A DNA stretch of 64,000 nucleotides. Origin: Octopus vulgaris (lineage: Eukaryota). A program made the position numbers and the translations under genes. How positions within the stretch are numbered: the first letter of the stretch is position 1; every line of letters starts with the position of its first letter. The notes beneath the pieces were generated by a model. It did not search any database and was not told the origin of the DNA. It saw only the letters and a list, made by a program, of their open reading frames with translations. The DNA lies in assembly GCA_951406725.2 (NCBI GenBank), contig OX597832.1, positions 66,526,001-66,590,000 on the forward strand, given 5' to 3'. Below, piece by piece: positions 19,888 to 63,100 of the stretch.

Positions 19888-19998
19888 ATGTGAGTGTGTG
19901 TGGGTATATATAAAATTATCACTTATATATATGTATATATTTATATATGATATAGATATATGTGAATGACTATGTATACATGTAAACATGTATAAAAT

Positions 19999-20392
19999 GA
20001 GTGGCTGTGTGGTAAGTAGCTTGCTTACCAACTACATGGTTCCGGGTTCAGTCCCACTGTGTGGCACCTTGGGCAAGTTTCTTCTACTATAGCCTCGGGC
20101 CGATCAAAGCCTTGTGAGTGGATTTAGTAGACGGAAACTGAAAGAAGCCCGTCGTATATATGTATATATATGTCTGCGTGTATGTTTGTGTGTCTGTGTT
20201 TGTCCCCTTAGCATTGCTTCACAACCGATGCTGGTGTGTCTATGTCCCCGTCACTTAGCGGTTCGGCAAAAAGGGACCGATAGAATAAATACTGAGCTTA
20301 CAAAGAATAAGTCCCGGGGTCGGTCGAGTTGCTCGATTAAAGGCGGTGCTCCAGCATGGCCGCAGTCAAATGACTGAAAAAAGTAAAAGAGT
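19999..20392 (+). mobile_element. tRNA-derived SINE (family A), well preserved
   Basis: GAGTGGCTGTGTGGTAAGTAGC..GGTTCAGTCCCAC head; 3' end GGCGGTGCTCCAGCATGGCCGCAGTCAAATGACTGAAA. Confidence 0.9.
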
Positions 20393-20393
20393 A

Positions 20394-20424
<31 letters not shown>

Positions 20425-20704
20425 TCAACAATTGAGGGTAAAATTAATTAATTATTAATCAATTTCACCAAGTATTCAGTATGTAAAGGGACCATTATAG
20501 GCGAATTCAAAATATTACATTATATATAAGGGCTTAGTAAAATAAATTACTTTGCCACATACTGAACTCATTAGAAATAGCAGCTAAAGAAATTTCTTCA
20601 GCTATTTCTAATACTTAAAGAAGATCTCTCTCAGATAGTGTTTGCCTAAACCAGCTCACAAAAGTATGGGGGAAAAAACATTAAAAAATCAAGTGCAAAG
20701 GTTA

Positions 20705-20760
20705 TTTGAGAACGTACGTTTCTAGATTAGTCAATTCGACATTTCTTTCTTCAGCTCAGA
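20705..20760 (-). ncRNA. Minimal type-I hammerhead ribozyme, copy 1
   Basis: RNA UCUGAG CUGAAGA [stem II AGA..GUC-GAAUU-GAC..UCU] GAAA C-GUAC-G UU^CUCAAA; stem I UGAG/CUCA; palindromic stem-loop III. Confidence 0.7.
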
Positions 20761-21261
20761 ATTCCTTGAATCGGATTTGGGAACACTGAAAGTCGGGAGC
20801 ATACCCTTTCGGCTTCTAATCACCTCTAGAATTCTGCTCGAACTAAAAGTGCTATCAAATTCGAATATGCAAGCGAAGAATTTCTGCTCTCCCCTTTCCA
20901 CCAGCGTGGGTTAAAATTGACAAACACCATGTATTAACGGTGAAAACCGCAGCATTTAGCAGAGAGAGATGAATTATAATTTCAACAATTGAGGGTAAAA
21001 TGAATTAATTATTAATCAATTTCACCAAGTATTCAGTATGTAAAGGGACCATTATAGGCGAATTCAAAATATTACATTATATATAAGGGCTTAGTAAAAT
21101 AAATTACTTTGCCATATACTGAACTCATTAGAAATAGCAGCTAAAGAAATTTCTTCAGCTATTTCTAATACTTAAAGAAGATCTCTCTCAGATAGTGTTT
21201 GCCTAAACCAGCTCACAAAAGTATGGGGGAAAAAACATTAAAAAATCAAGTGCAAAGGTTA

Positions 21262-21317
21262 TTTGAGAACGTACGTTTCTAGATTAGTCAATTCGACATT
21301 TCTTTCTTCAGCTCAGA
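21262..21317 (-). ncRNA. Minimal type-I hammerhead ribozyme, copy 2
   Basis: Identical to 20705-20760, 557 nt away. Confidence 0.7.
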
Positions 21318-21673
21318 ATTCCTTAAATCGGATTTGGGAACACTGAAAGTCGGGAGCATACCCTTTCGGCTTCTAATCACCTCTAGAATTCTGCTCGAAC
21401 TAAAAGTGTTATCAAATTCGAATATGCAAGCGAAGAATTTCTGCTCTCCCCTTTCCACCAGCGTGGGTTAAAATTGACAAACACCATGTATTTAATGTTT
21501 TTTCCCCCATGCTTTTGTGAGCTGGTTTAGGCAAACGCTATCTGAGAGAGATCTTCTTTAAGTATTAGAAATAGCTGAAGAAATTTCTTTAGCTGCTATT
21601 TCTAATGAGTTCAGTATATGGCAAATTAATTTATTTTACTAAGCCCTTATATATAATATATATATATATATAG

Positions 21674-21707
<34 letters not shown>

Positions 21708-22486: not shown

Positions 22487-22572
<86 letters not shown>

Positions 22573-22574
<2 letters not shown>

Positions 22575-23082
22575 ATCATTAATTAAAATCTTAGGGTAGC
22601 AAGAATATTCATCGAAAAATTCTTAGTTATCAGTGGTCTAGCGAGAAAGAAAAAAATAGTCAATAGACTATATATTATCCTAAGAAGAATACAGTGTACG
22701 TTCAAATACAAAAGGGATACCCGAAGAATAGGATATCTGACTCGCTAGAAAGAGCAGTTAAATCTCCAAGCCACTAATTTTTTATAATTCCGAAAGTGAT
22801 TGGAAAATCCTAGACCCTGCAAGATTTCTGCAGACTTAAATACAGACTGAAGTAAAATAATTTCAGTCTATATGTGGCACTGCTTTTTCAGTAGGTTGCC
22901 AGGACTAACCACATAGGCACGGAGCGATAAATAACCCGCCAGGTGACTACAGACTCTAATTTCTAGGATTAAGGTAAAAGTTTTATTTTCCAATCACTTT
23001 CGGAATTACAACAATTGGTGGCTTGGAGTTTTAACTGCTCTTTCTAGCGAGTCAGATATCCTATTCTTCGGGTATCTCTTTT

Positions 23083-23086
<4 letters not shown>
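22573..23086 (-). mobile_element. Fold-back pLTR-like element within (TA)n, carrying a mutated hammerhead (22809-22895)
   Basis: Inverted repeats about 22710-22808 / 22985-23082; minus strand CCUA CUGAAAA [GCAG..long hairpin..CUGC] GAAA UCUUGCAGGG UC^UAGG. Confidence 0.65.
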
Positions 23087-25225: not shown

Positions 25226-26341
25226 ATATATATATATGTGTACAGAAATATCCTCTTACGGCTATCAGAGCACATTGTAATCAATTAGAAAGTAATGTAA
25301 TATGGAGTTTCCCTGTAACTAAAAATCCTGAATTTCCTATCGCTGAAAATATTTCATGTGCTACATGTAAACGATAAATTTAAAAGTTATGAAAGCTGAA
25401 TAGACCTTTACATAGCCAAGTGGCTTTCTTAAGGTTATGTAAGGAAATATGTTAGCACCAATATGTATGATCTGCATTATACAATGAAATTGGACAGTCA
25501 CAATTTGGTGCAAAGCAGGAAAGCTTGCTCGTCAAATCACCAACGCTTAGTGGTTGAACCAACAGTTCAGATTGAAATTTACTTACAATATATATTTTTG
25601 ATATATACTGTGTAAGGAAGGTTGAAATGGGCAAAATCTGATTAATTTGTTGAGTAAAAATAAAGATAGTTTGTACAGCTTCATATCAATTGAGTTAAAG
25701 GATTTGACACAATTTAAAAATTTGAATATCTTTAATATGAAATGAGAAAAATATGAACAGGGTCTGAAAATAGATAATACACATATTAAATAGCATAAAA
25801 ATATATAAAAATGTAAGTAGATGATATAAATTGATTTTTAACAAAAATAATGATGTAGATGGGTACATGTGTATCAAGACAATTCAAGTTTAATAATTAA
25901 TAATTAATTTAATAAAGACTGTGTGCTTTTTTGTCTGAGTGTATATATATATATATATATATATATTGTTATATTTATATATATGGTCATATTTCGGAAT
26001 GGTCATATTGCCAGTTTAGCCAATAAAAACACACGCACTATATATTTGGTGTTATTTTGCTTCAGTGATATTTAATTTTTACATTAATCTCAATCTTATT
26101 TCGGCCAAAGTTCTTTCGTCACTCTCCAGTGACCGCATCAGTGGTCCTTTGTTTTCTTCTCACCTATTTGTGTCTCTCCTTACTAACCGTCAGCCATTTT
26201 GTATTTCTATTGTATGTCTTCATTTGCGCATGCTTATATTTCTATGTGCGTCTATAAGGTTGTTGAAAAGCCAGGCAACCCTATCAAATCTATAATTGGT
26301 AGAACCTATCCTATTGCACTGTATGTAGATTTAGCCCACAA

Positions 26342-26545
26342 ACAAACTGTAAAGCCAGAAATGTAGTCTATAGTATAAGATGTATAGAGGGACGATGCAG
26401 TAACAAGACAGTAATGTACGTAGGGGAAACAGCAAGAAGCATAGGAGAGCGGGTGAATGAACATTGGAGACAACTCAAGGAAGGTAAAAGCTCATCGATT
26501 CTGTACCAACACGCCGAACAGGAACACGGGGGTAGTCTATTGTGA
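26342..26545 (+). pseudogene. GIY-YIG endonuclease fragment of a Penelope-like element
   Basis: Manual translation TNCKARNVVYSIRCIEGRCSNKTVMYVGETARSIGERVNEHWRQLKEGKSSSILYQHAEQEH fits the PLE pattern VVY..C..C..YVGET.R...R..EH. Confidence 0.85.
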
Positions 26546-27325
26546 CCTTAATACTCTGGTGGATGGAGTTAGCTATTTGCTGGATGCTCTCCATAGTATT
26601 AGTTTCTATTACTATATCAACATTACTCTCTTGTGGGGGTGCCTTTACTACTATATTGATATCATCAACATAGCGAGAGTACATGTTTACGAGTATGGAT
26701 TTCTGCAGTAGGCATTCTTTAAGCATTCTGTCCCACCATACCATGAAAAGGTTGGCCACATCACCAGCGATACTAACACCCTCGTCCTGGGCATATATTT
26801 TATTATTAAATTTAAATGTGTGGCCTCTTAGGGTAACTCTTATACTAGCTCCTAGTGCATGTGCGATCATTTTCTTTACTTGATGGACATTTGTGGGGCT
26901 CCGTATGGCTCTGGTCCATCCGCGCCATCTTTCTATATGTGGCTTCCTAGCCATAGAAGTAATTGTAGGCGGTCTACCTTTTTAAACATCTACTGGGGCA
27001 GAAACTACTAAGATTATGTTTATCTAAGTATTCATTATTATATGTAAGTCTAAGTAGGAGGCCCAGTTCTTCTGTGTCGACATTACAGAACTCCACCTGG
27101 CTCTCGTTGATCATCTCCACGCACTTCTCCAGTGCAAAATCTACGTCAATCGATGGGTATAGGGATACCACATCCATGCTACCTACTATACATCCTGTCG
27201 AGTCACAAGTTTTGTTACAGTCACTGATCCTACTTAGGAGATCTTCTGTGCTGTCACACAAATCAGGTGACATCCTGATTATAGGGCGTATGATCATTGA
27301 GAGGAAGTAGGAGATTCTGTAAAAT
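26530..27325 (-). pseudogene. Penelope-like reverse transcriptase fragment
   Basis: ORFs 26974..27426 and 26475..26954 contain GSMDVVSLYPSID, FKFNNKIYAQDEG, VANLFM and YSRYVDDI; split by a stop codon. Confidence 0.85.
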
Positions 27326-27343
27326 TGGTGAGAAGAAAACAAA

Positions 27344-27389
27344 GGACCACTGATGCGGTCACAGGAGTGTGACGAAAGAACTTTGGCCG
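27344..27389 (+). ncRNA. Hammerhead-like motif with variant core (second copy 26102-26147 on minus)
   Basis: GGACCA CUGAUGC G GUCAC-AGGAGU-GUGAC GAAA G-AA-C UU^UGGCCG; 5-bp stem II, stem I CCA/UGG, A9 replaced. Confidence 0.5.
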
Positions 27390-27563
27390 AAATAATATTG
27401 AGATTAATGTAAAAAATAAATATCACTGAAGCAAAATAACACCAAATATATAGTGCGTGTATTTTTATTGGCTAAACTGGCAATATGACCATTCCGAAAT
27501 ATAACAATATCTGTTTCAACACACGACTTCACATAAAAAATCTTGCACAACAAATATTTAAAC

Positions 27564-27629
<66 letters not shown>

Positions 27630-32268: not shown

Positions 32269-32295
<27 letters not shown>

Positions 32296-32299
<4 letters not shown>

Positions 32300-34311
32300 T
32301 ATGTTTGACTTTTGCTTTATGTCTGTACAAGTTGGCTCCAAGTCTCACCCAGAGACCTCAAGAGACAACAGGTTGGAAGTTCTGTGCCATATATTTGGGG
32401 GGGGGTTGTGTTGTACTAGTGAATGTCTAATACAGAAAAATAAAATTTTAAAAACATAAATAAATAAATAAAAGAAAAAGTTTGTTTTAAACCTTGGGAT
32501 TACATAGAGAATATTTTGCGTAGGATATGAGCAGTTCCCATGAGCACTATCTTTTGAATTTCTGCCATTTGGGGGTTTCCTGGTATCTGAGTTAGGTAGC
32601 AATCAGTCCCTTTCGCTATCATTCCCAGGGTACCTATGACAACAGGTATTGTTTTAGTCTTCAGCTTCCACATTTTGCTGATTTCTATTTCAAGATCTTT
32701 ATATTTGCTCAGTTTTTGGTAGGTCTTGACAGATACGTTTATATCGATTGCGACTGTCATATCAATGAGCAGGCATGTTCTTTGTCCGAAGTCTTTCAAT
32801 ATGATGTCTGGCCTATTTGCATCTATCTTCCTGTCAGTTTGAATGGTGAAGTTCCAGAGGAGTGAGATGTGGTCATTTTCAAGCACTGGAGGTGGATTGT
32901 GTTCCCACCAGTTTTTTTTATGGGGCAAATCCAGGTTTTTGCAAATTACCCAGTGAATATATTGTGCAGCTCTATCATGCCTGTTGAGGTATTCTGTAGG
33001 CGCTAGAAGACTGCATTTGGAGACAACATGATCAATGGTTTCATTTTGTTGTCGGCATACACTACATGTTGGGCTACTGCCGTTCTTTAATATGTTGGCC
33101 TGGTAGTTTCTTGTTGGTAGGCATTGATCTTGAGCTGCTATGTTAAACCCCGCTGTTTCAGATTTTAAGCCAGAGGCCATTAGCCATTGATGGGTCAGGG
33201 CTTTGTCAATATCTGCATTATTCGCTCTCTTTGGGTATTTGCCATAGAGAGGTTTTTCGTGCCATTTATTATTCAGAATATCTAAGGCCGCAGTTTTGGT
33301 ACGGGTTTTCATGCGCCTAGATTTTTCTGTGCTTGTTTCTTGTATGTCTATCTCTAATTCCGAAATTGGCTGTATTCGGAATTCACTTAGATATTCCTTT
33401 GCCTGTTTTGTTACTGAGTATGATGCTTTCTTGTTTTAATGTTTTTAGACAAGTTTTAACATCCAGTCCTCAGAGTTTTTCAGGTAGGTGTCTAGGCCAA
33501 TTGTAGCAATCTTCATTGTTATTGCCAGTTGCTAAAGACCACGGCCTCCCACTTTTCTTGACAGATATAGTCGTTCTGTATCTGCCTTATGGTGGTGCAT
33601 TCTATGCATTGTCAACAGTTTCCTTATTTTTCTGTCGAGCTGACATATTTCAGTAATTGACCAGTTAACAATATTGAAACTGTAAGTCACGACTGGTATG
33701 GCTAATGCATTGATCGCTTCGATCCTGTTTCTTGCATTCAGCTCTGTCTTGAGTATTGGTCTCACTCTTCGATAGCATTTTCTCCTGATCCTTTCCTTCA
33801 TCTCTGAATGCCTTATTCTGTTCCCTTCACTTACCCCTAGGTACTTGTAGCTCTCCGCTGGGTCTAGTTCTTTTATGACATTCTGCTGGTCAAGGTTAAC
33901 ATTAGATGCTTCTGTCATTTTTCCTTTGATAAAGGTAGCTTTTGCACATTTATCGAGGCCGAATTTCATTCTGATGTCGTCACTGAATTGTTTGACTATC
34001 GCTAGTAAGCCCTTGAGTTGTTGGTCATTTTTTGCAAAAAGATTTAAATCATCCATGTAAATGAGATGATTTATATTTTTATCAAACATTTTATACCCGT
34101 ACTGCGCGTCATTGAGCAGCTTTGAGAGAGGTATTAAAGATAAACAAAAGAGGAGTGGTGACAGTGAGTCACCCTGGAAAATGCCACACGAAATTTTTAC
34201 ATCACCAGCATTTAGGGTTTCATTGTCACTGTTCAGAATTAGTGTGGTTCTCCATGATCTCATACTTACAGTCAAGAAGTTTCGCAGAGTAGGTGCTATC
34301 TTATAAATTTC

Positions 34312-34313
<2 letters not shown>
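32296..34313 (-). pseudogene. 5'-truncated R4/Dong-like RLE non-LTR retrotransposon within (TAA)n
   Basis: RT motifs GIFQGDSLSPLLF and YMDD; CCHC knuckle CSVC..H....C, RHD, RPD and K..KY of the restriction-like endonuclease; internal stops; TAA tracts on both sides. Confidence 0.9.
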
Positions 34314-34393
<80 letters not shown>

Positions 34394-34400
34394 ATTATTA

Positions 34401-34449
<49 letters not shown>

Positions 34450-35039
34450 ATAAGTGAATAAATAATCAGACCTATTTTGTTGTCTCAAGATATATGAAAG
34501 TTAAATTTGGTTCGTGTAGGATTTGAGAACAGAACAATAATATGAATAAAGATTTAGATACAATGTAAAAAATATTTGAGAGAAGTTAGTTTTCTAGCCT
34601 ATAGACTTCATGGTTACATATTTTATCAACATCAGTGGAGTGATGATATTAATGGTGACCTCAGTGTTATTTGAAATCGAAACATAAAGGGCCGAAATAA
34701 ATGGAATAAATAATTTTTGTTACCGATATTTTAACGATTTTCCCAGATCAAGATGCTTCAACAATCTTCACTCGTTTACATCGACCATAGTATTTGAGTG
34801 TATATTTGTTAATTTGATACCCTTTCTGTTGGAGGGCAAAGAAGATGTTGACGAAATTTGAACGCTAAATGTAAAGATCCTAAACAAATAGAGTTAGAAA
34901 ATTATTTGGGAACCCTAACGAATTTGTCAGCTCACCGTCTTAACGATGAGAATAGTTGTAAGTTCATGATTATACAGGAGGCAAAGCATTTCATGCAGGT
35001 ATCTTTTACGGTTATATAGATAGTATCTATTGGATAATA

Positions 35040-44045: not shown

Positions 44046-45311
44046 CGAGGGGCGTTCAATAAGTAATGCCCCTGACCCACTTCCCATAGCAATAGAGCAA
44101 CGAAACTTGGCACAGGTATTAGTCTTTTTCTACATAGGAACAACCCAGAGGTACACATTTCTCCCATCGTTTGATGCAGTTCTGGAGACCGTTTTCGTAG
44201 AAGACCCCAGCTTGGTCCTCCAACCACGACGTGACTTCAAAAATCAAGGCTGCATCATCTGGGAAACGCTTTCCTTTCAAAAACAACTTAATGGCTGGGA
44301 AGAGGTGAAAATCAGAGGGTGCAAGGTCAGGAGAGTAGGGGGATGGGGGAAGAGTTCATAGCCGCACGCCTGTGCTTCTGATCTGGCGACACGCGAGTTG
44401 TGGACCGGAGCGTTGTCCTGCAGGAGGAGGACGCCTTTGCTGATCTTGCCCCGTCTCTTGGTTTCGATAGCTTCTCTTAATTTCCTCAAAAGTGAAACAT
44501 GATAGGCTCCTGTAATTGTGGTACCCTTTGCCAGGAAATCTGTCATCACTACTCCGTCCAGGTCCCAGAAGACTGTGAGCATGACCTTGCCAGCGGAGGG
44601 CTGCACCCTTGCCTTCTTTGGAGGAGGTGAGTCATGGTGCTTCCACTGCATTGACTGGGCTTTGGTCTCTGGATCATAGTGATGGACCCAGGTTTTATTC
44701 TATGCAATCAGTCTTTTGAAAAAATTTGACTCATCTTCTTGGCACATCCCTAAATTCTTGCTTCTGGAATTCTTGCGTTCTTGCTTCTGGAAAAGTGTGA
44801 GCAACCTGGAAATCCATCTGGCAGAAACCTTTTGCATATGCAAATGGTCATGAATGATAGTTTCCACAGACCCGGTACTAATCTTGACCTCATGGGCTAT
44901 TTGGCGAATAGTTATGCGTCGATCTTCCAAAATGGCAGCCTCAACTTGACGGACAGATGCCTCATCAATGGCAGAAGGGGTGCGACCAGATCTGGGAGCT
45001 GTTTCCACAGAGTTCCGACCATGTTTGAATACACGATGCCAGCGTTTTACAAGGTCATATGATGGGGCATCATCACCATAAGTTACTTTCATTTCATTAA
45101 AAGTCTCCTGTGGTGTGCGTCATTTCAAATACAAAACCCGGATCACTGCTCGACACTCAACATGCTCCATTTCCCACTTGACTCATTTAAAACACCTGTA
45201 AATTAATTTGCCACTTAATCTATAGAGATATAAATAATTGCACATGCAAAATTTCAGCTAGATCAAACAAAGGCAAGTGGGTCAGAGGCATTACTTATTG
45301 AACGCTCCTCG
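44046..45311 (-). mobile_element. Full-length mariner transposon with frameshifted transposase
   Basis: TA TSDs (44044-45, 45312-13); TIRs CGAGGGGCGTTCAATAAGTAATGCCCCTGACCCACTT; ORF pieces with HTH (VKRWHRVFK.GR), KVSARWI, KVMLTVFWD, QDNAPVH and a frameshifted YSPDLAPSDF. Confidence 0.95.
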
Positions 45312-46273: not shown

Positions 46274-48150
46274 AATGAAAATAATATCTTCGTTTTTCGC
46301 ATTGCAGATCGCTTGCGGAAAACAATCTACTGCCAATAGAGTAGAAGGGATGTCGAAAAGGATCCGAGAGCACCAAACACCTCTTTGTGATAGACAAAGT
46401 TATAATGAAGCATTGTAAATGGTACGAAAAATACTTATGCATAGCCGAGATAGACTTCAAAATGGCTTACTTCATTTTGCCGCATTCGGGGATTTTGGAA
46501 ACACTCGAGATCTGTGGAATGGCTGAGAACGCGTGTGCACTGATTAAGAACAGCATTCCTAGTTGGAAAACACGTCTTTCTTGTAACAACCAGCACTTAA
46601 CCGAAGTAACAAGCAAAAGAGGTATCGTCCAAGGAGATTTTTGTTCACCTCTGTTATTTGTTATAGCCTTGATCTCACCTTCTGTAGACCTATGTAAGTC
46701 GACGCGCACTATAAGCTGCGAAAGAATGGACCTCGTCTCAAACATATTCTCTTCATGGACAATTTTAAACTGTTCGCGAAAACAGAGCTCAAAATATAGA
46801 GGCTGGTGGGGACTGTGCAAATGTACAGCAAAGATATAGGGGTGAAATTCGGCATCTCGAAGTGTGCGGCGCTTATTTTGAAGCGTAGGAAAGGAGTAAA
46901 TTGTAGGGGCATAGAATTGCCAAACGGAGAGAGAATTGAAGACCCAGATGATGATGGAAACAAGAACCTTGGGATCCTGGGACTGGACAATATCTTGCAC
47001 AGACAAATGAAAGACAAGGTCATCACTGCATATTTCAAGTGCCTTAAACTTCACTTGAAATCAAAACTCGACTCAAGGACCCTTGTGACTACCATCAACG
47101 TATGGGTGGTTGCTGTAGTCCGCTATAGTGAACCCATCCTGAGATGGACTCAAACAGAGATTAATCAATTCGATCGCACTACCCGAAAGACAATGGCAAT
47201 ATATGATGCCCTCCACACTAAGGCGAATGTGCACAGGCTTTACATGAAGAAGGGTAAACGTGAACGTGTGCTGATCAGCGTACGGGAGTGCATTAACATT
47301 GAAAGAAGAAACGGCAGAACATTTGGTACACAGCAAACAAGATCTGCTACCATATGTTGCAAATGCAGAAGAATTTAACAAAAAATGGAGTTGTGCTCAT
47401 GTATTCCGATCAAGAACAGCCGATGACAGAGAACAAACTCTAATCCGTTTGGAATTATTTTGTCAGTTTCGCCGTGAAACCCATAAATTAAAAGATTAGA
47501 AAGCATCATGAAGGTGGCTTAAAATATGTGATATAAAGAATACTGTCTGCAGAATGTGTGGGAAGAGGGCTGAAAAATTGACTCACATTGTTAGTGCTTG
47601 ATAAAATCTTGCTCAGAAAGTGTACAAGCGTAGACATGACAGGTTAACCCCAAACAATTGCTGGTTACTATGCCGGAAGTATGGATGTGAGGTTATAGGT
47701 ACTTGGTACACAGGAAAAGCTAATGACCGAAAAGGTGAAGGCAAAAACCTTTGACTTCTAGACACACAAAATTTTAGAGTACCAATGGCCGGATATAGTA
47801 ACATTTAGGAGAGACAAACAATAGTGCCTAATAATTGACGTAGCAGTGCCCGATCAACATATAATCATGAAAGAGAAAAGTATAAATACAGAGACCTGAA
47901 AATTGAGATATCTAAGATATAGCAGCAATGTGAGTCAAACATAAAGGCTTCTATATTGTCATCGGAGCATTGGGTTCAATACCACCCAATCTGAAAAAGA
48001 AAACATCGAAAATCTTTAGAAATATCCTACAATCTACGTGTATTGCAAAACTCGGCATTACATGAAACTGCGCGAATATTGCGTAAAGTTATGTCTGTCT
48101 GAGTCCTTGTTGTGATTTGACAGATAGTGCAAACCCCCAGTTAACACAAT
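46274..48150 (+). pseudogene. Degenerate R4/Dong-like LINE
   Basis: IDFKMAY, RGIVQGDFCSPLLF and FGISKCA motifs, then CRMC and RHD remnants; multiple frameshifts. Confidence 0.8.
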
Positions 48151-48304
48151 ATTTCAATCAACAACAGCACGATATAGTATACAGCACGACGCCTATAAGA
48201 ACAACAAGAACAACAGCAGCAACAATAGCAACAAGAGCAACAACAACAACAACAACAATAATAATAAATAAAAATAATAATAAAAATAATAATAATAAAA
48301 ATAA

Positions 48305-48371
<67 letters not shown>

Positions 48372-48374
<3 letters not shown>

Positions 48375-50735
48375 CATCCAAAACAAAATTAAAAAAAATA
48401 GAAAAGACCTGTCGATTCTTAATGAAATCAGCAAACAATCAACGCTACTGAGCAACAAAAAGAGAACAAAAATGCTCCGCAAATATAACATCACAGAAAA
48501 AGATTTGCCGGAGATAAAAGAAAAGCTGAAGCAAGATATCCTTGCCAAAGCTCAAAGGATCTGCCGATGCCTCCCTACTATGTTCAAGGCATTTACTGCA
48601 GTGATATCGCAAAGGCTGAACAAGCACCTGGACGAAAACAAACTGTTTCCAGAAGAGCAGAAAGGATGCCGCAAAGGCTCATATGGCTGTAAAGATCAAC
48701 TAATGATTAATAAAGCCGTAACTGAAGACAGCCACAGAAAGAAGAAAGGCCTCAGTATGGCCTGGATTGACTACAAAAAGGCGTTTGATAGCATCCCCCA
48801 CACATGGATCCTCGAAACACTAGCCATTAACAAAGTAGCACCAACAATCATAAAATTCATAGAGCACTCTATGAATAAATGGCAAACAGTCCTACACCTC
48901 CAAACAAAAGAGGGACTCATGAAAACCAAAGACATCTCCATTAGAAGAGGAATATTCCAGGGAGACACGCTCTCTCCACTCCTTTTCTGCTTGGCACTGT
49001 CACCTCTATCTGATATGCTAAATAGAACTGGATGCGGATATAAATGTTACGGCAAAACGATCAGCCACCTTTTATATATGGATGACCTAAAACTATACGC
49101 TGCAAATGACAAACAGCTGGAAACACTATTAAAGACAGTTCATGGATTTACCAAAGAAATAGATATGAAATTTGGATTAGAAAAATGCGCCAAAGTAACC
49201 ATGAAAAGAGGAAAACTAGTTAAGAGTAACAACATCACACTAGATAAAACCAATGAAATAAAAGAATTAGACCAAAGCCAAACTTACAAATACTTAGGAA
49301 TCCATGAACTAGATAAGACACAATACACACAAATGAATTAGAAAATAAAAAAAGAATATTATAGACGAGTTAGATCAATACTAAAAACAGAGCTCAATGC
49401 TAAAAACAAAATAATAGGTATCAACACTTTAGCTCTCCCAGTTATAAGTTACAGCTACAATATCCTTAACTGGACACGAAATGAACTGTCCAAAATAGAT
49501 AGGAAAACAAGAAAAATACTGACAGGATCTAGGATGCATCACCCGAAATCTGACATAGAAAGACTATATATACAACGTATAGAAGGTGGTAGAGGCCTTA
49601 TACAGCTGGAAAACTACTATAAAATAACCACCATAGGACTGCAAAAATATCTACTTCAGAAGGAAGGAAAACTGATCCAGATAGCAGCAAAACACGAGCA
49701 AAACAAAAAACTGTTCTCAGTATTTAAGGAAGCTGACAAATACAAACAAGAAATCATACCACCTAATAAACATGAAGAAGAAGAAGAAGATGATGAAGAA
49801 ACAACAAAAGCTATAAAACAAATGAAATCCAAACTAAAAATAGAACAGCAACGAACCATGATAAATCGATGGCAAGAAAAGCCCCTTCATGGTAAATACT
49901 GGACTAAACTAAACGCAAAAGAAATAGACAAAGAAAAATCCCAGCAATGGTTGTGAAGCTCAGGACTCAAGGCAGAAACAGAGGGATTTTTAATTGCAGC
50001 ACAAGACCAAAGCCTCCCCACCAGAAATTACCAAAAAACATGTAATGAAAAGAAATATTACAAGTAACTGCAGAATATGTGGAGATGGACAAGAAACAAT
50101 AAATCATATTATCTCTAACTGCCCAGTCCTGGCTAAGAAGGAATATATTCACAGACATGACAGAGTTGGAACCTACATACATTGGAAGCTATGTCAACAT
50201 TATGGAATAACAACAGAAAAAAGATGGTATAGACACACACCAGAAAAGGTACAGAAAACGAGAAAGCAACCATACTCTGGGATATGCCGATACACACAGA
50301 TAGAGAAATTAAGGCCAACAGACCAGATATAGTTGTCAGAGATCATGAAGAAAAAATGCTTTCTAATTGATGTATCAATACCGGCAGATGACAACGTGTC
50401 TCTAAAAGAAATGGAGAAACTCTCAAAATACAAAGACCTGGAAATAGAGGTAACTAGAATGTGGAATCTGAAAACAGAAACAATTCCTATCATAGTAGGT
50501 GCATTAGGCATGATAAAAAAATATTCAGACAAATACATAACAAAAACACCAGGACTTACAAACACATATAACATACAGAAAATTGCACTACTAGGCACTG
50601 CATACATCCTACGCAGAACACTTTCCATACAATAACCATCAGAGCATCACAACAAATCACAGCACATACCCAAGTCACACAGAGCTGCGCTCGGTAGTGA
50701 AGTGAAAGCACGCTATAAAAATAAAACTACTGAAT
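48372..50735 (+). pseudogene. Young R4/Dong-like LINE (RT plus RLE), 5'-truncated with internal deletion
   Basis: EEQKGC, WIDYKKAFDS, GIFQGDTLSPLLF, YMDDLK, CRICG..H....C, RHD, RPD, IDVSIP, K..KY; few stops or frameshifts; (TAA)n on both sides. Confidence 0.92.
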
Positions 50736-50825
50736 AATAATAATAAAAATAATTAGAAGAAGAAGAAGAAGAAGAAGAAGAAGAAGAAGAAGAAGAAGAA
50801 GAAGAAGAAGAAGAAGAAGAAGAAG

Positions 50826-51827
50826 CATGAAAGCCCGTGCTACAACTGCTTCCTTAGATATTCTGAATAATAAATGACAAGAAAAACCTCTCTATGGCAA
50901 ATGCCCAAAAAGAGCGAATAATGCAGATGTTGACGAAACCCTGACCCATCAATGGCTAATGGCCTCTGGCTTAAAATCTGAAACAGAAGGGTTTATTATG
51001 GCAGCTCAAAATCAATGCCTACGAACAAGGAACTACCCGGCCAATATATTAAAGATCAGCAGTAGCCCAACATGTCATGTATGTCAACAACAAAATGAAA
51101 CCATTGACCATGTTGTCTCCAAGTGCAGACGTCTAGCGCCTACAGAGTACCTCAACAGGCATGATAGAACTGCAGAATATATTCACTGAGTAATCTGCAA
51201 AAACCTGGATTTGCTCCATGAAAAAAACTGGTGGGAACACAAACCACATCCAGTGCTTGAAAATGACCACATCTCACTCCTCTGGAACTTCCCCATTCAC
51301 ACTGACAGAAAGATAGATGCAAATAGTCGAGACATCATATCGAAAGACTTCAAACAAAGATCATGCCTCCTCATTGATATGACTGTCCCAATCGATATAA
51401 ACGTATCTGCCAAGACCTACCAAAAACTGAGCAAATATAAAGATCTTGAAATAGAAATCAGCAAAATGTGGAACCTCAAGACTAAAAGAAAACCTGTTGT
51501 CATAGGTACCCTGGGAATGATAGCAAAAGGGGCTGATCGCTACCTAACTCAGATACCAGGAAACCCCAAAATGACAGTAATTCAAAAGATAGTGCTCATG
51601 GGAACTGCTCATATCCTACGCAAAATACTTTCTATGTAACCTCAAGTTTTAAAACAAACAATTTTCGTATGCTTTTTTAGGCATTCACTAGTACAACACT
51701 AAGTACAAAACCAAATATATGGCCCCCTAGGCATAACACCAACATGAACTTCCAACTTGTTGTCTCTTCAGGTCTCTGGGTGAGACTTGGAACCAGCTTG
51801 TGCAAATGTAAAGCAAAAGTCAAACAT

Positions 51828-51829
<2 letters not shown>
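50826..51829 (+). pseudogene. 3' fragment of an R4/Dong-like LINE, same subfamily as 32296-34313
   Basis: ORFs 50959..51189 and 51211..51639 are nearly identical in protein to 32500..33312; shared 3' UTR; (TAA)n tail. Confidence 0.9.
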
Positions 51830-51911
<82 letters not shown>

Positions 51912-60399: not shown

Positions 60400-63100
60400 A
60401 TGTCCGCATCGAATGCCTTCCTCTAGAAATATGCCAATTTTTCCAGCCTAAAGCGATATCTGGTTTATTTCTCCAATAATTAATAAGAGAAACACCTCTT
60501 ACTCCCCAATGCAGCGCGATCCTGAACAGATTATATAATATACATCTACAGAACTTGGAATCTCACTAACACGATTATGGCTCAGAGTAACACGACCACC
60601 TAACAACGTCACCACCGATGAAAACTTGGACTCAAGAACTAAACTAAGATTTACATCGGTGCTATGAAAAACCTGAGATGAGCCTTCAATCGGATAGATG
60701 AAACGATTAAAACAATACTGTGCCGAAGCTCATCCCGACTTGAATATCTTCACGGTTAACATCTCCAACAAGCATCCTTTGTCAAAAAAAAAACAAAAAA
60801 AAACTCAACTGGTCCTCGATCCTCACAGGACACTGAAAATAGGCTAAAATCTTCCAGGAACGGCGTAAAAAATAATGTAAATAAATCACCGTTCCTGCCA
60901 CCGCTAGATTCGAGGGTGCCTTCAAATCTATCCCAGCAGCAAAGACGGCGGAACGCATCTAACTCAAAAACATTTTAAAATTACAATTCGCAAAAATTTT
61001 TACTACTCTCTCGAAGCTTCCTTTGAGCAACAGACCATTCCCAACACGAGTAAGAAAAAACCGACCGATTTAATTTCTAAGGCTATCGACGATGTTGCTG
61101 GAGAGCACATGGAATCATGGAATAGTAATTACTGGAATATTAATACTCTTATATACACAGCCGCTATTACTCTTAAAGAACACCTACGAGAAATCTACGG
61201 TGAACAAAGTAACGAAGTTACTGAACGGAAACCATCAAGACGGAAAACAAAACTTGAAGAAAACATCAACAGTAAAATGTAAAATGTAAGAAGAATGAGT
61301 TTTCACCTCGCCAACTCTACCTAAACAAAAATTAACGAAATTTTATGGCAATTCTTCAAACCGAGCTCTTGAGGGAACGCTAATCTCTTTAAAATTTGAA
61401 TTCAGGAAGATGAGCGAGAAACTCTGCTGTCGCATGCGAATGTTTGAACGTGCCATTGTTAATTGTAAATTTGTTTCCAAACTACAAACCTTATACAGAG
61501 AGATGAGGAAGGAAATCATTACCATTAACAATGCTCCCTCCCAAGAAGATCTACAATCATTCTGGTCAATAACTTGGAACGAAAAGAGCGATTTCATCTT
61601 GAATGCATCATGGTTGAATACAGTTGAGAGAGAATATTGTACCAACACTAACAGTAAAACATACAAAATTGATGCAGAAACCTTCTCTCTAGCAGTAGGC
61701 AAACATGCAAACCGGGAAGATATCTGGAAGGGACCTAATAGTTGGAAACTGTTACAAGAAGCTGGCATTTTATAGTAACCAGCAAGTATGTATATTCAAA
61801 AGAACTATGGAAGGTCAGAATGATATATAAGATTGGCTTGCTACAACAAGGACAAATCTTGTTGCCAAAAATGAAATCACCGAGATGAAATCAGGCCCAT
61901 TTATGGCCTAAACGTTATGTGCAAATTGTACACAAGCTGCCTCAAACAATTCCGCTAGGACCATTGTGAGTCGAACAGCATTTTGACTGATGAACAGGCT
62001 GGTGGAAAGAAGGGACTATGAGGATGTGCGGAACAGCTTTTATTAAACAAAGCTGTAATGTCTGAAGTAAGAAAACAACGTAGAAACTGTGTGACAGTAT
62101 GGTTTCACTATAAGACGGCATTCAACTATCACTCATTCATGGCTGCTGAAGGGCCTACATCTGGCAAAGGAACCTACTACCTTAATTGCTGGTAACAGAG
62201 TCTCACAAAGTCTTAACGTTACAACTGAGAACAGAATAATTGTTTCTGATCGCAGCGGCATTTAAAGGGAATATTCCAGGGAGATAGTGTTTCTCTACAT
62301 CTTTTCATTTTGGCACTGACTCCATTATCGTTCCTACTGCAGAAAACAAATGGTAGGATCTTCAACTGCTGGAAATATGAATTTAACTAATGCCAAAAAA
62401 CAACTGGAATTAATAACATTTTCAGCTGATATAGGCATAGAATTTGGCCGAAAGAAATGTTCATTTTTGGTTATAGAACGAGAAAAATCAGTCTCCCAAC
62501 CCCAAAATCTGTGCATCAACGGTCTCTCTATCCCCCCATTCCACACAATGAATGTTGCAAGTACCTAGGCATAGACGTAACTGTATCATATGAAGTACTG
62601 TGAATAAAGGTAGAGTGACCCGAGAATATTGCAGCAGACTTAGGAAAATATGGCAGTCGGAACTCTCCTTCTGCAGCAAAACAATATCCCACAATGCATT
62701 TGCTGTATCAGTGTTGATCTCAACATTTAAGATTATTGATTGGTCTGTAGAGAAATTCCACTCCATAGATCTCAAAATCCGCAAACTCCTGAAAACAACT
62801 GGGAACTTCTACGGAAACAGTAATGTCGACAGACTCTACTCAAGAATAAAGGTGGTAGAGGCTCTACTCAAGAATGAAGGTGGTAGAGGACTGAGATCAG
62901 TGCAGACGTCATGAAATAGAATTATAAAATCTCTCTGTTATAGAATACATTCATAAGCACAAAAACTGGGATTTTCGGAAAGAGAAATCGAGCGGCTAAT
63001 TCGTACGTTACAAGTCCAATCTGTGATAGGAACAGTAAAAATTTCGAATGCATCCATTGAGACATATGTCGATGATATGAAGATATAACTGATTTAATAA
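60400..63100 (+). pseudogene. Long degenerate R4/Dong-like LINE
   Basis: FWSITW, DEQAGGKKG..GCAEQLLLNKAVM, GIFQGDS, FGRKKC and SNVDRLY..GGRGL motifs across broken frames; boundaries approximate. Confidence 0.8.

Follow-up and report, generated by a model that had tools for sequence, protein, structure and literature searches.

Non-LTR retrozymes consist of tandem units that are low in GC, lack coding capacity and carry one type I hammerhead ribozyme (HHR) per unit (PMC7229834; 10.64898/2026.07.22.740005). The same organization is found in a repeat with a 557-nt unit that lies in a 64,000-nt stretch of the Octopus vulgaris genome (hereafter the window, to which all positions refer). The unit is longer than the 150–450 nt given in one description (PMC7229834) and falls within the 51–972 nt given in the other (10.64898/2026.07.22.740005). 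It shares a single-pair helix III and a palindromic loop with the axolotl HHR_Amex1 and a mismatch at the base of helix II with HHR_Amex2, although the mismatch is U·U in the axolotl and A·A in the octopus (PMC7229834), and the predicted circle is self-paired, as in other non-LTR retrozymes. Inverted arms with two fixed ends, as known from Penelope-like elements (PLEs), are present in the 557-nt family but were not met with in the accessible parts of the retrozyme descriptions (PMC7229834; 10.64898/2026.07.22.740005). Furthermore, cleavage and circular RNA are predictions in the 557-nt family, and no homologous PLE terminal repeat (pLTR) was found.

The EN+ PLEs (Penelope/Poseidon and Neptune; PMC8557442, PMC3846280, PMC11167929) resemble the 557-nt family in their partial tandems with an inverted 5′-truncated copy, a tail at one end only (seen in published inverted insertions, PMC8557442, PMC3846280), microsatellite targets and an HHR upstream of two internal starts. 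They differ in the length of the tail (30–40 nt vs. ~90 nt in the 557-nt family) and in the ORF, which the 557-nt family lacks. Two internal reverse-transcription starts define the tail of the anole PLE and both target strands were extended in vitro; the anole element starts at sites that are non-homologous to the cut DNA, whereas both ends of the 557-nt family resemble the (TA)n target (PMC11167929). The MRC1-type elements of Chlamys (PMC8557442) are non-autonomous PLE passengers with multicopy head-to-tail insertions, as is proposed here for the 557-nt family, but as a rule they have their 3′ sequence in common with an autonomous family, and most have no HHR, whereas the 557-nt family carries an HHR and no shared sequence was found. 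The cave-cricket repeat pDo500 likewise has units of ~500 nt with an HHR that was proposed to act as a double hammerhead (PMC2837043, which together with PMC13282606 serves as a background source). The HHR satellites of newts and schistosomes (as cited in PMC7229834) and of crickets form blocks, in contrast to the short dispersed insertions with defined ends of the 557-nt family. A link between retrozymes and PLEs has already been proposed (PMC7229834; 10.64898/2026.07.22.740005) and as a kind of element the 557-nt family is not new. Literature searches for a cephalopod retrozyme or an octopus hammerhead revealed no description of the 557-nt family, which the octopus repeat library, Repbase or the 2026 preprint supplements may name otherwise, and the word “ribozyme” is absent from the accessible text and one supplement of the octopus repeat-annotation paper.

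The octopus insertion (20423–21657) lies between two (TA)n tracts (20392–20422 and 21658–21701). Its long arm consists of a full 557-nt unit (20423–20979) whose outer end is located at site A and includes the tail, followed by a second unit (20980–21492) that stops after 513 nt and differs from the first by 4 substitutions; the HHR-sense strand of both units is the minus strand. The second arm (21491–21657) is a 167-nt inverted copy of unit positions 97–263 on the plus strand (97.6% identity) that overlaps the long arm by 2 nt (21491–21492) and ends at site B without the tail. A first-pass annotation of the window had reported near-identical tandem copies, an inversion of 167 nt and the absence of an ORF, all of which were recovered here: positions 20418–20935 and 20975–21492 are 99.0% alike with a period of 557 (5 mismatches in 518 nt, one of them at the TA edge), and none of the six reading frames of the unit stays open for more than ~70 codons. 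Of the two copies that it described, however, only the first is whole. G or C accounts for 193 of the 557 majority bases of the unit, which corresponds to a GC content below 50%. The insertion sits in the TA-rich end of a SINE-like repeat (19997–20390) that has further copies in the window.

Both end sites are TA-like and are located on the minus strand within the units. Site A (20975–20982 inside the tandem) represents one class of family ends and is a putative start of reverse transcription; site B (20512–20521, also 21069–21078) represents the other class and is a putative second start. Site B is enclosed by an 8-bp helix (20476–20483 with 20558–20565, minus strand) which, in an RNAalifold prediction across 16 members of the clan (the 557-nt subfamily and its relatives), is the only helix kept and shows two-sided changes in 3 of its 8 pairs.

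A DNA search of the octopus genome returned 1,953 candidates, and the best 40 loci that were scored contain 146 matches to the unit with up to 100% identity. These 40 loci and a further 10 from a search with the shorter stretch 20512–20700 were examined. The outer ends adjoin (TA)4 in 95 out of 100 cases, and (TA)n on both sides masks any target duplication, which in non-LTR retrozymes exceeds 4 bp when present, at these 50 loci as well as at 20423–21657. The ends fall at two sites ~90 nt apart, A at q553-3 and B at q90-99 in unit coordinates. Two arms with their HHR-sense 3′ ends facing outward were found in 37 out of 50 loci, and among these top-scoring matches, a choice that favors long arms but should not hide A+A loci, 34 combine A with B and 3 combine A with a B end that is shortened; A+A and B+B do not occur. 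The remaining 13 loci have a single orientation (8 with B, 5 with A). A tail of ~90 nt is present at one end only in 34 out of 37 two-arm loci, and an LTR-type layout, which non-LTR retrozymes lack along with a primer-binding site and a polypurine tract, was not found among the 50. The inner junctions are variable (24 out of 32 simple two-arm loci have a 0–5 nt overlap and 8 contain 1–62 extra bases), and the longest arm reaches up to 5.4 units. As judged from these ends, the A+B arrangement is the “tail/no-tail” inverted signature of PLEs, and the inversion that the first-pass annotation had left unexplained is the key PLE signature of the locus. That annotation also made no mention of the (TA)n target, the family, the two fixed ends or the A·A mismatch described below. 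A strict one-of-each rule for the ends was not found described in the open literature.

Divergence is lowest within an arm (0.43%), slightly higher between arms (0.52%) and highest between loci (1.6%), and 7 out of 38 well-covered loci show no internal difference, all of which points to a young family. The copy at 20423–21657 is among its more diverged members; the near identity of its two units, which had been taken as a sign of recent activity, reflects and dates a single insertion event and not the activity of this locus. Relatives with ~85%, 72%, and 63% identity have the stretch from the HHR to site A in common and use similar ends, and sister subfamilies show the A+B arrangement in 7 out of 8 two-arm loci (among 10 loci chosen for several HHRs). 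Overall, positions 20423–21657 represent one insertion of a young, dispersed, non-coding and hammerhead-bearing family, rather than the assembly artefact that had been named as a possible refutation of the tandem, and this insertion was probably placed in a (TA)n tract by a PLE enzyme acting in trans. In a related family, a whole inverted insertion occurs three times nearby (L093–L095, two of them 511 bp apart), which suggests a DNA-level duplication.

Identical HHR motifs of type I are present on the minus strand of both units (20707–20758 and 21264–21315), and the predicted cuts after GUU fall at the positions given previously (20711/20710 and 21268/21267), so that the predicted monomer spans 20711–21267 (557 nt, minus strand) from cut to cut. 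The hammerheads do not delimit the insertion, as had been assumed, since it ends ~190–200 and 290 nt downstream of the cut. Each motif has a 4-bp stem I and a helix II of 3 + 3 bp around a 3 × 3 internal loop. Helix III is entirely palindromic (A15.1-U16.1, one C-G pair and a GUAC loop); the palindrome that had been assigned to the loop is thus present but spans the whole helix. According to the clan alignment, the base of helix II is an A·A mismatch at 10.1-11.1 in the 557-nt subfamily and G-C, U·U, G·U, or A-U in the relatives, part of the HHR set having been chosen by a pattern that demands G or C at 10.1 and 11.1. The minimal HHRs of PLEs have an unpaired base after A9 followed by a conserved G10.1-C11.1 pair, where the 557-nt unit has A·A instead, and a U3-A8 swap has been described for them (PMC4209133).

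A search against Rfam gave no hammerhead match to the locus, either at the gathering score or at E ≤ 10, and the hammerhead assignment is therefore based on the motif and its covariation. Weak miRNA-like Rfam matches were dismissed as AT-rich hairpins and TA tracts far below the gathering score. A pattern for the HHR layout of the clan had 2,536 matches in the genome compared with 10 for a reversed control pattern, and a narrower pattern had 173 compared with 6. A total of 54 distinct clan motifs were parsed without demanding pairs in stem I or II. Each of the four stem I pairs, formed by several pair types, is kept in 50–52 of these motifs, as are the three upper pairs of helix II; positions 3 and 8 are C3-G8 in 39 motifs, U3-A8 in 11 and U·G in 4. 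Of the 54 motifs, 53 have GUC, GUA, or GUU as the cleavage triplet and 52 a self-complementary helix III. Paired cells number 383 out of 432 compared with at most 329 in 1,000 shuffles, which ignore the relatedness of the motifs. The covariation is good evidence for a selected ribozyme fold in the clan.

Whether the A·A variant is active was assessed from predicted folds and described cases. In the predicted two-copy transcript the two palindromes pair with P ~0.99, but the lowest-energy dimer fold is inactive, as helix III over-extends into the core via U17-A14, and the active double hammerhead is predicted to lie 3.3–4.1 kcal/mol above the minimum-energy fold. The minimal HHRs of PLEs cut poorly even as dimers (PMC4209133), no product was obtained from 8 out of 9 retrozyme dimers of Xenopus (10.64898/2026.07.22.740005), and the HHR of the anole PLE cut only with protein present and was dispensable in vitro (PMC11167929); dimer cleavage of minimal hammerheads, which the first-pass annotation treated as established, was therefore overstated. 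An axolotl retrozyme with U·U at 10.1-11.1 does cut, and better as a dimer (PMC7229834). Taken together, the A·A mismatch, the predicted folds, and the axolotl case suggest that cleavage is plausible but weak or protein-assisted, and we consider it fairly probable that the hammerhead of the 557-nt subfamily is still functional. As a circle, the 557-nt monomer is predicted to fold at −134.3 kcal/mol compared with −112.8 ± 5.0 kcal/mol for 60 shuffles (z = −4.3), whereas the opposite strand (−115.5 kcal/mol) does not stand out.

The structure of the arms provides information on the template that was copied. Arms longer than one unit are common (42 out of 74), the cut site is traversed by 76 out of 88 aligned arms, and no more than 2 out of 74 arms terminate within 10 nt of it (~3 expected by chance). 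Since the arms cross the cut and rarely end there, the linear cut monomer was rejected as the main template. At a single sister locus (L271) the end of one arm coincides with the predicted hammerhead cut. This leaves two templates to be weighed: a circle, and an uncut multi-unit linear transcript from which a PLE-driven insertion would be made with jumps between RNAs, the hammerhead being weak or incidental and no circle being needed. Copies within a locus disagree at 66 out of 1,889 comparisons at shared polymorphic sites (544 expected), and there are 27 rare variants, distributed over 20 loci, that every copy of the respective locus carries, including copies on both arms in 14 cases. The fixed variants imply that lineages pass through single units and are then re-multimerized, a bottleneck that uncut transcripts would have to undergo as well in order to account for these 20 loci. 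The cut site is moreover crossed almost without scars (118 crossings carry 6 nearby differences), and the sister subfamilies contain arrays of 5–9 near-identical units, both of which count against the uncut transcript. One such array consists of 5 units that differ by single-base indels and has TA flanks with A and B ends (L267), and another has 9 HHR-to-HHR units of which 8 are identical at 545 nt (L266); these arrays would fit rolling-circle reverse transcription. A third array of 11 identical 546-nt units (L265) was not relied on because it is bounded by N on both sides.

Other observations favor the uncut transcript. The anole PLE used mainly uncut RNA and its HHR mutants inserted normally (PMC11167929), the predicted dimer fold is inactive, and a total of 7 locus-private variants in 5 loci are present in two but not all copies (including q136 at 20423–21657). 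Furthermore, different family alleles occur together at 3 sites of L069, an array of 5.4 units, and mixed templates, template switching, or later conversion are thus needed at some loci. On the other hand, an incidental hammerhead agrees poorly with an HHR covariation that persists across families that are only ~63% alike. Weighing these points, we regard copying of uncut RNA as rather unlikely, and a circle as slightly more likely than not to be the usual template. The earlier reading of the locus as retrozyme-like and recently active, with a possible 557-nt monomer or circle, fits the family data, although three of its points were overstated.

Sequencing runs were also inspected for this region. 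Four runs that are guessed to be RNA (from three studies; none is on record as RNA) gave contigs over 21–26 out of 30 bins, including the HHR, with neither joints nor shared ends. All listed runs are stored as contigs, a form in which ends and circles are not visible, and the four runs were counted neither for nor against expression. In the window at 20380–21700, these runs show plus-strand T>C differences at 10, 3, 5, and 2 places compared with A>G at 2, 0, 0, and 0, with five of the T>C in one run contig at 20616–20647. These differences would fit A-to-I editing of the hammerhead-sense strand, and other subfamilies could explain them too. Editing that is written back into the DNA is unsupported, with 4 T>C and 10 A>G among the locus-fixed variants.

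The genome was searched for a partner PLE. It contains two young PLE families whose ORFs, of 781 aa and 1,312 aa, are intact; the former has matches to RVT_1 and GIY-YIG, and both families end in TA at two sites that are separated by ~40 and ~56 nt, respectively. Contiguous similarity to the unit was absent from 60-odd loci around GIY-YIG matches (150 out of 6,136 GIY-YIG candidates scored) and from 28 loci of the second family with the 1,312-aa ORF (the search also scored 150 out of 3,507 candidates), and in the loci fetched neither young family shares DNA similarity with the relatives of the unit. The 781-aa protein has no tblastn match anywhere in the 64-kb window. Matches to the unit beside the 781-aa PLE at four loci (L038, L057, L085, and L089) were not accepted as joined because they fall outside the ORFs; a complete reading of L038 and L057 revealed separate relatives in the same TA tracts as the PLE.

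These searches bear on the possibility that the units are severed pLTRs of an autonomous PLE, that is, truncated copies and not an independent lineage. An HHR and a two-ended tail are features of pLTRs (PMC4209133, PMC8557442), the Xenopus retrozymes are homologous to pLTRs (10.64898/2026.07.22.740005), and a joined element could be hidden among the GIY-YIG candidates beyond the 150 that were scored. Yet in families A, C, and D whole units of 545–564 nt follow each other head to tail with no ORF between them, and screening of the clan loci with PLE proteins revealed no ORF joined to the unit, the few matches being separate insertions in the same TA tract; the loci found by the HHR pattern likewise contain no joined ORF. 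We therefore regard an origin as severed pLTRs as improbable. As the unit contains no RT or GIY-YIG ORF, the repeat is not an autonomous PLE, and it is very probably non-autonomous and PLE-mobilized. An origin of the tandem and the inversion at the DNA level (slippage, unequal exchange, or fold-back in a minisatellite) or as an assembly artefact could explain the longest identical arrays by expansion but is highly improbable, given that the copies at 20423–21657 differ at 7 out of 502 doubly covered positions, that 50 dispersed loci have common outer ends and different inner junctions, and that it offers no nameable explanation for the A+B rule.

The best explanation overall, which we consider reasonably probable, is a retrozyme unit that is spread by a PLE after being cut, circularized, primed at two sites, and re-copied. 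The tandem locus would be transcribed on the minus strand, and the two hammerheads would pair via their palindromes and cut weakly, probably with the help of a protein. The released 557-nt monomer would be closed into a circle. A PLE protein would then nick both strands of a (TA)n tract and prime one of them at site A and one at site B. After the circle has been copied once or several times, the two cDNAs would be connected head to head. At the level of sequence features the repeat resembles the non-LTR retrozymes, and it appears to behave like a PLE-mobilized non-autonomous element; it would represent an additional non-LTR retrozyme with unusually clear PLE footprints. A more specific joint reading is offered only tentatively: a protein-free 557-nt circular RNA would be copied by an unrelated PLE enzyme that rolls round the circle and always uses two distinct internal priming sites, one per nicked TA strand, and the clan would have lived in this way down to ~63% identity while freeing the usually conserved 10.1-11.1 pair of the hammerhead. 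If this joint reading is true, the genome directly preserves at these loci both an obligate, asymmetric priming by PLEs at two sites and a record of rolling-circle reverse transcription.

The proposal that PLEs move animal retrozymes via circular RNA has so far been based on co-occurrence and on homology to pLTRs rather than on the structure of insertions, and how PLEs build tandem and inverted insertions has been called open (PMC8557442). The 557-nt family presents a PLE end signature on a non-coding HHR unit together with a strict one-of-each end rule, and the same genome holds the two young PLE families with intact ORFs. With this combination, a short RNA would suffice to address both questions in vitro.

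Members of the two young PLE families were observed in more detail at several places. The PLE at L061–L068 (e.g., L061:906–4587), which we take to be of the Neptune type, has a CxxC linker between RT and GIY-YIG and a 359-codon open frame that precedes the 781-aa ORF; it is young, its TA ends are ~40 nt apart, and its long terminal repeat region contains no clear HHR in a motif scan. Within the window, a young PLE insertion in (TA)n (25981–27570) has several internal inversions, pieces of RT and GIY-YIG, and one end with and the other without a 56-nt tail. In the family of this insertion the ORFs are intact, 1,312 aa long and contain an asparagine-rich stretch, with no Pfam match at E ≤ 0.1, and a hammerhead-like motif near 27347 has C in the place of A9.

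The window contains several other repeats. An insert of ~515 bp between TA tracts (22571–23086) has no similarity to the 557-nt clan and contains an inverted repeat (22710–22808 vs. 22985–23082, 94%). Broken reverse-transcriptase frames, presumably of the LINE type, are located at 32269–34500, 46345–51859, and 61299–61772, and 32269–33314 and 50825–51859 are 86% alike in inverted orientation. A transposase in two frames, which we take to be mariner-like, is found at 44280–45119.
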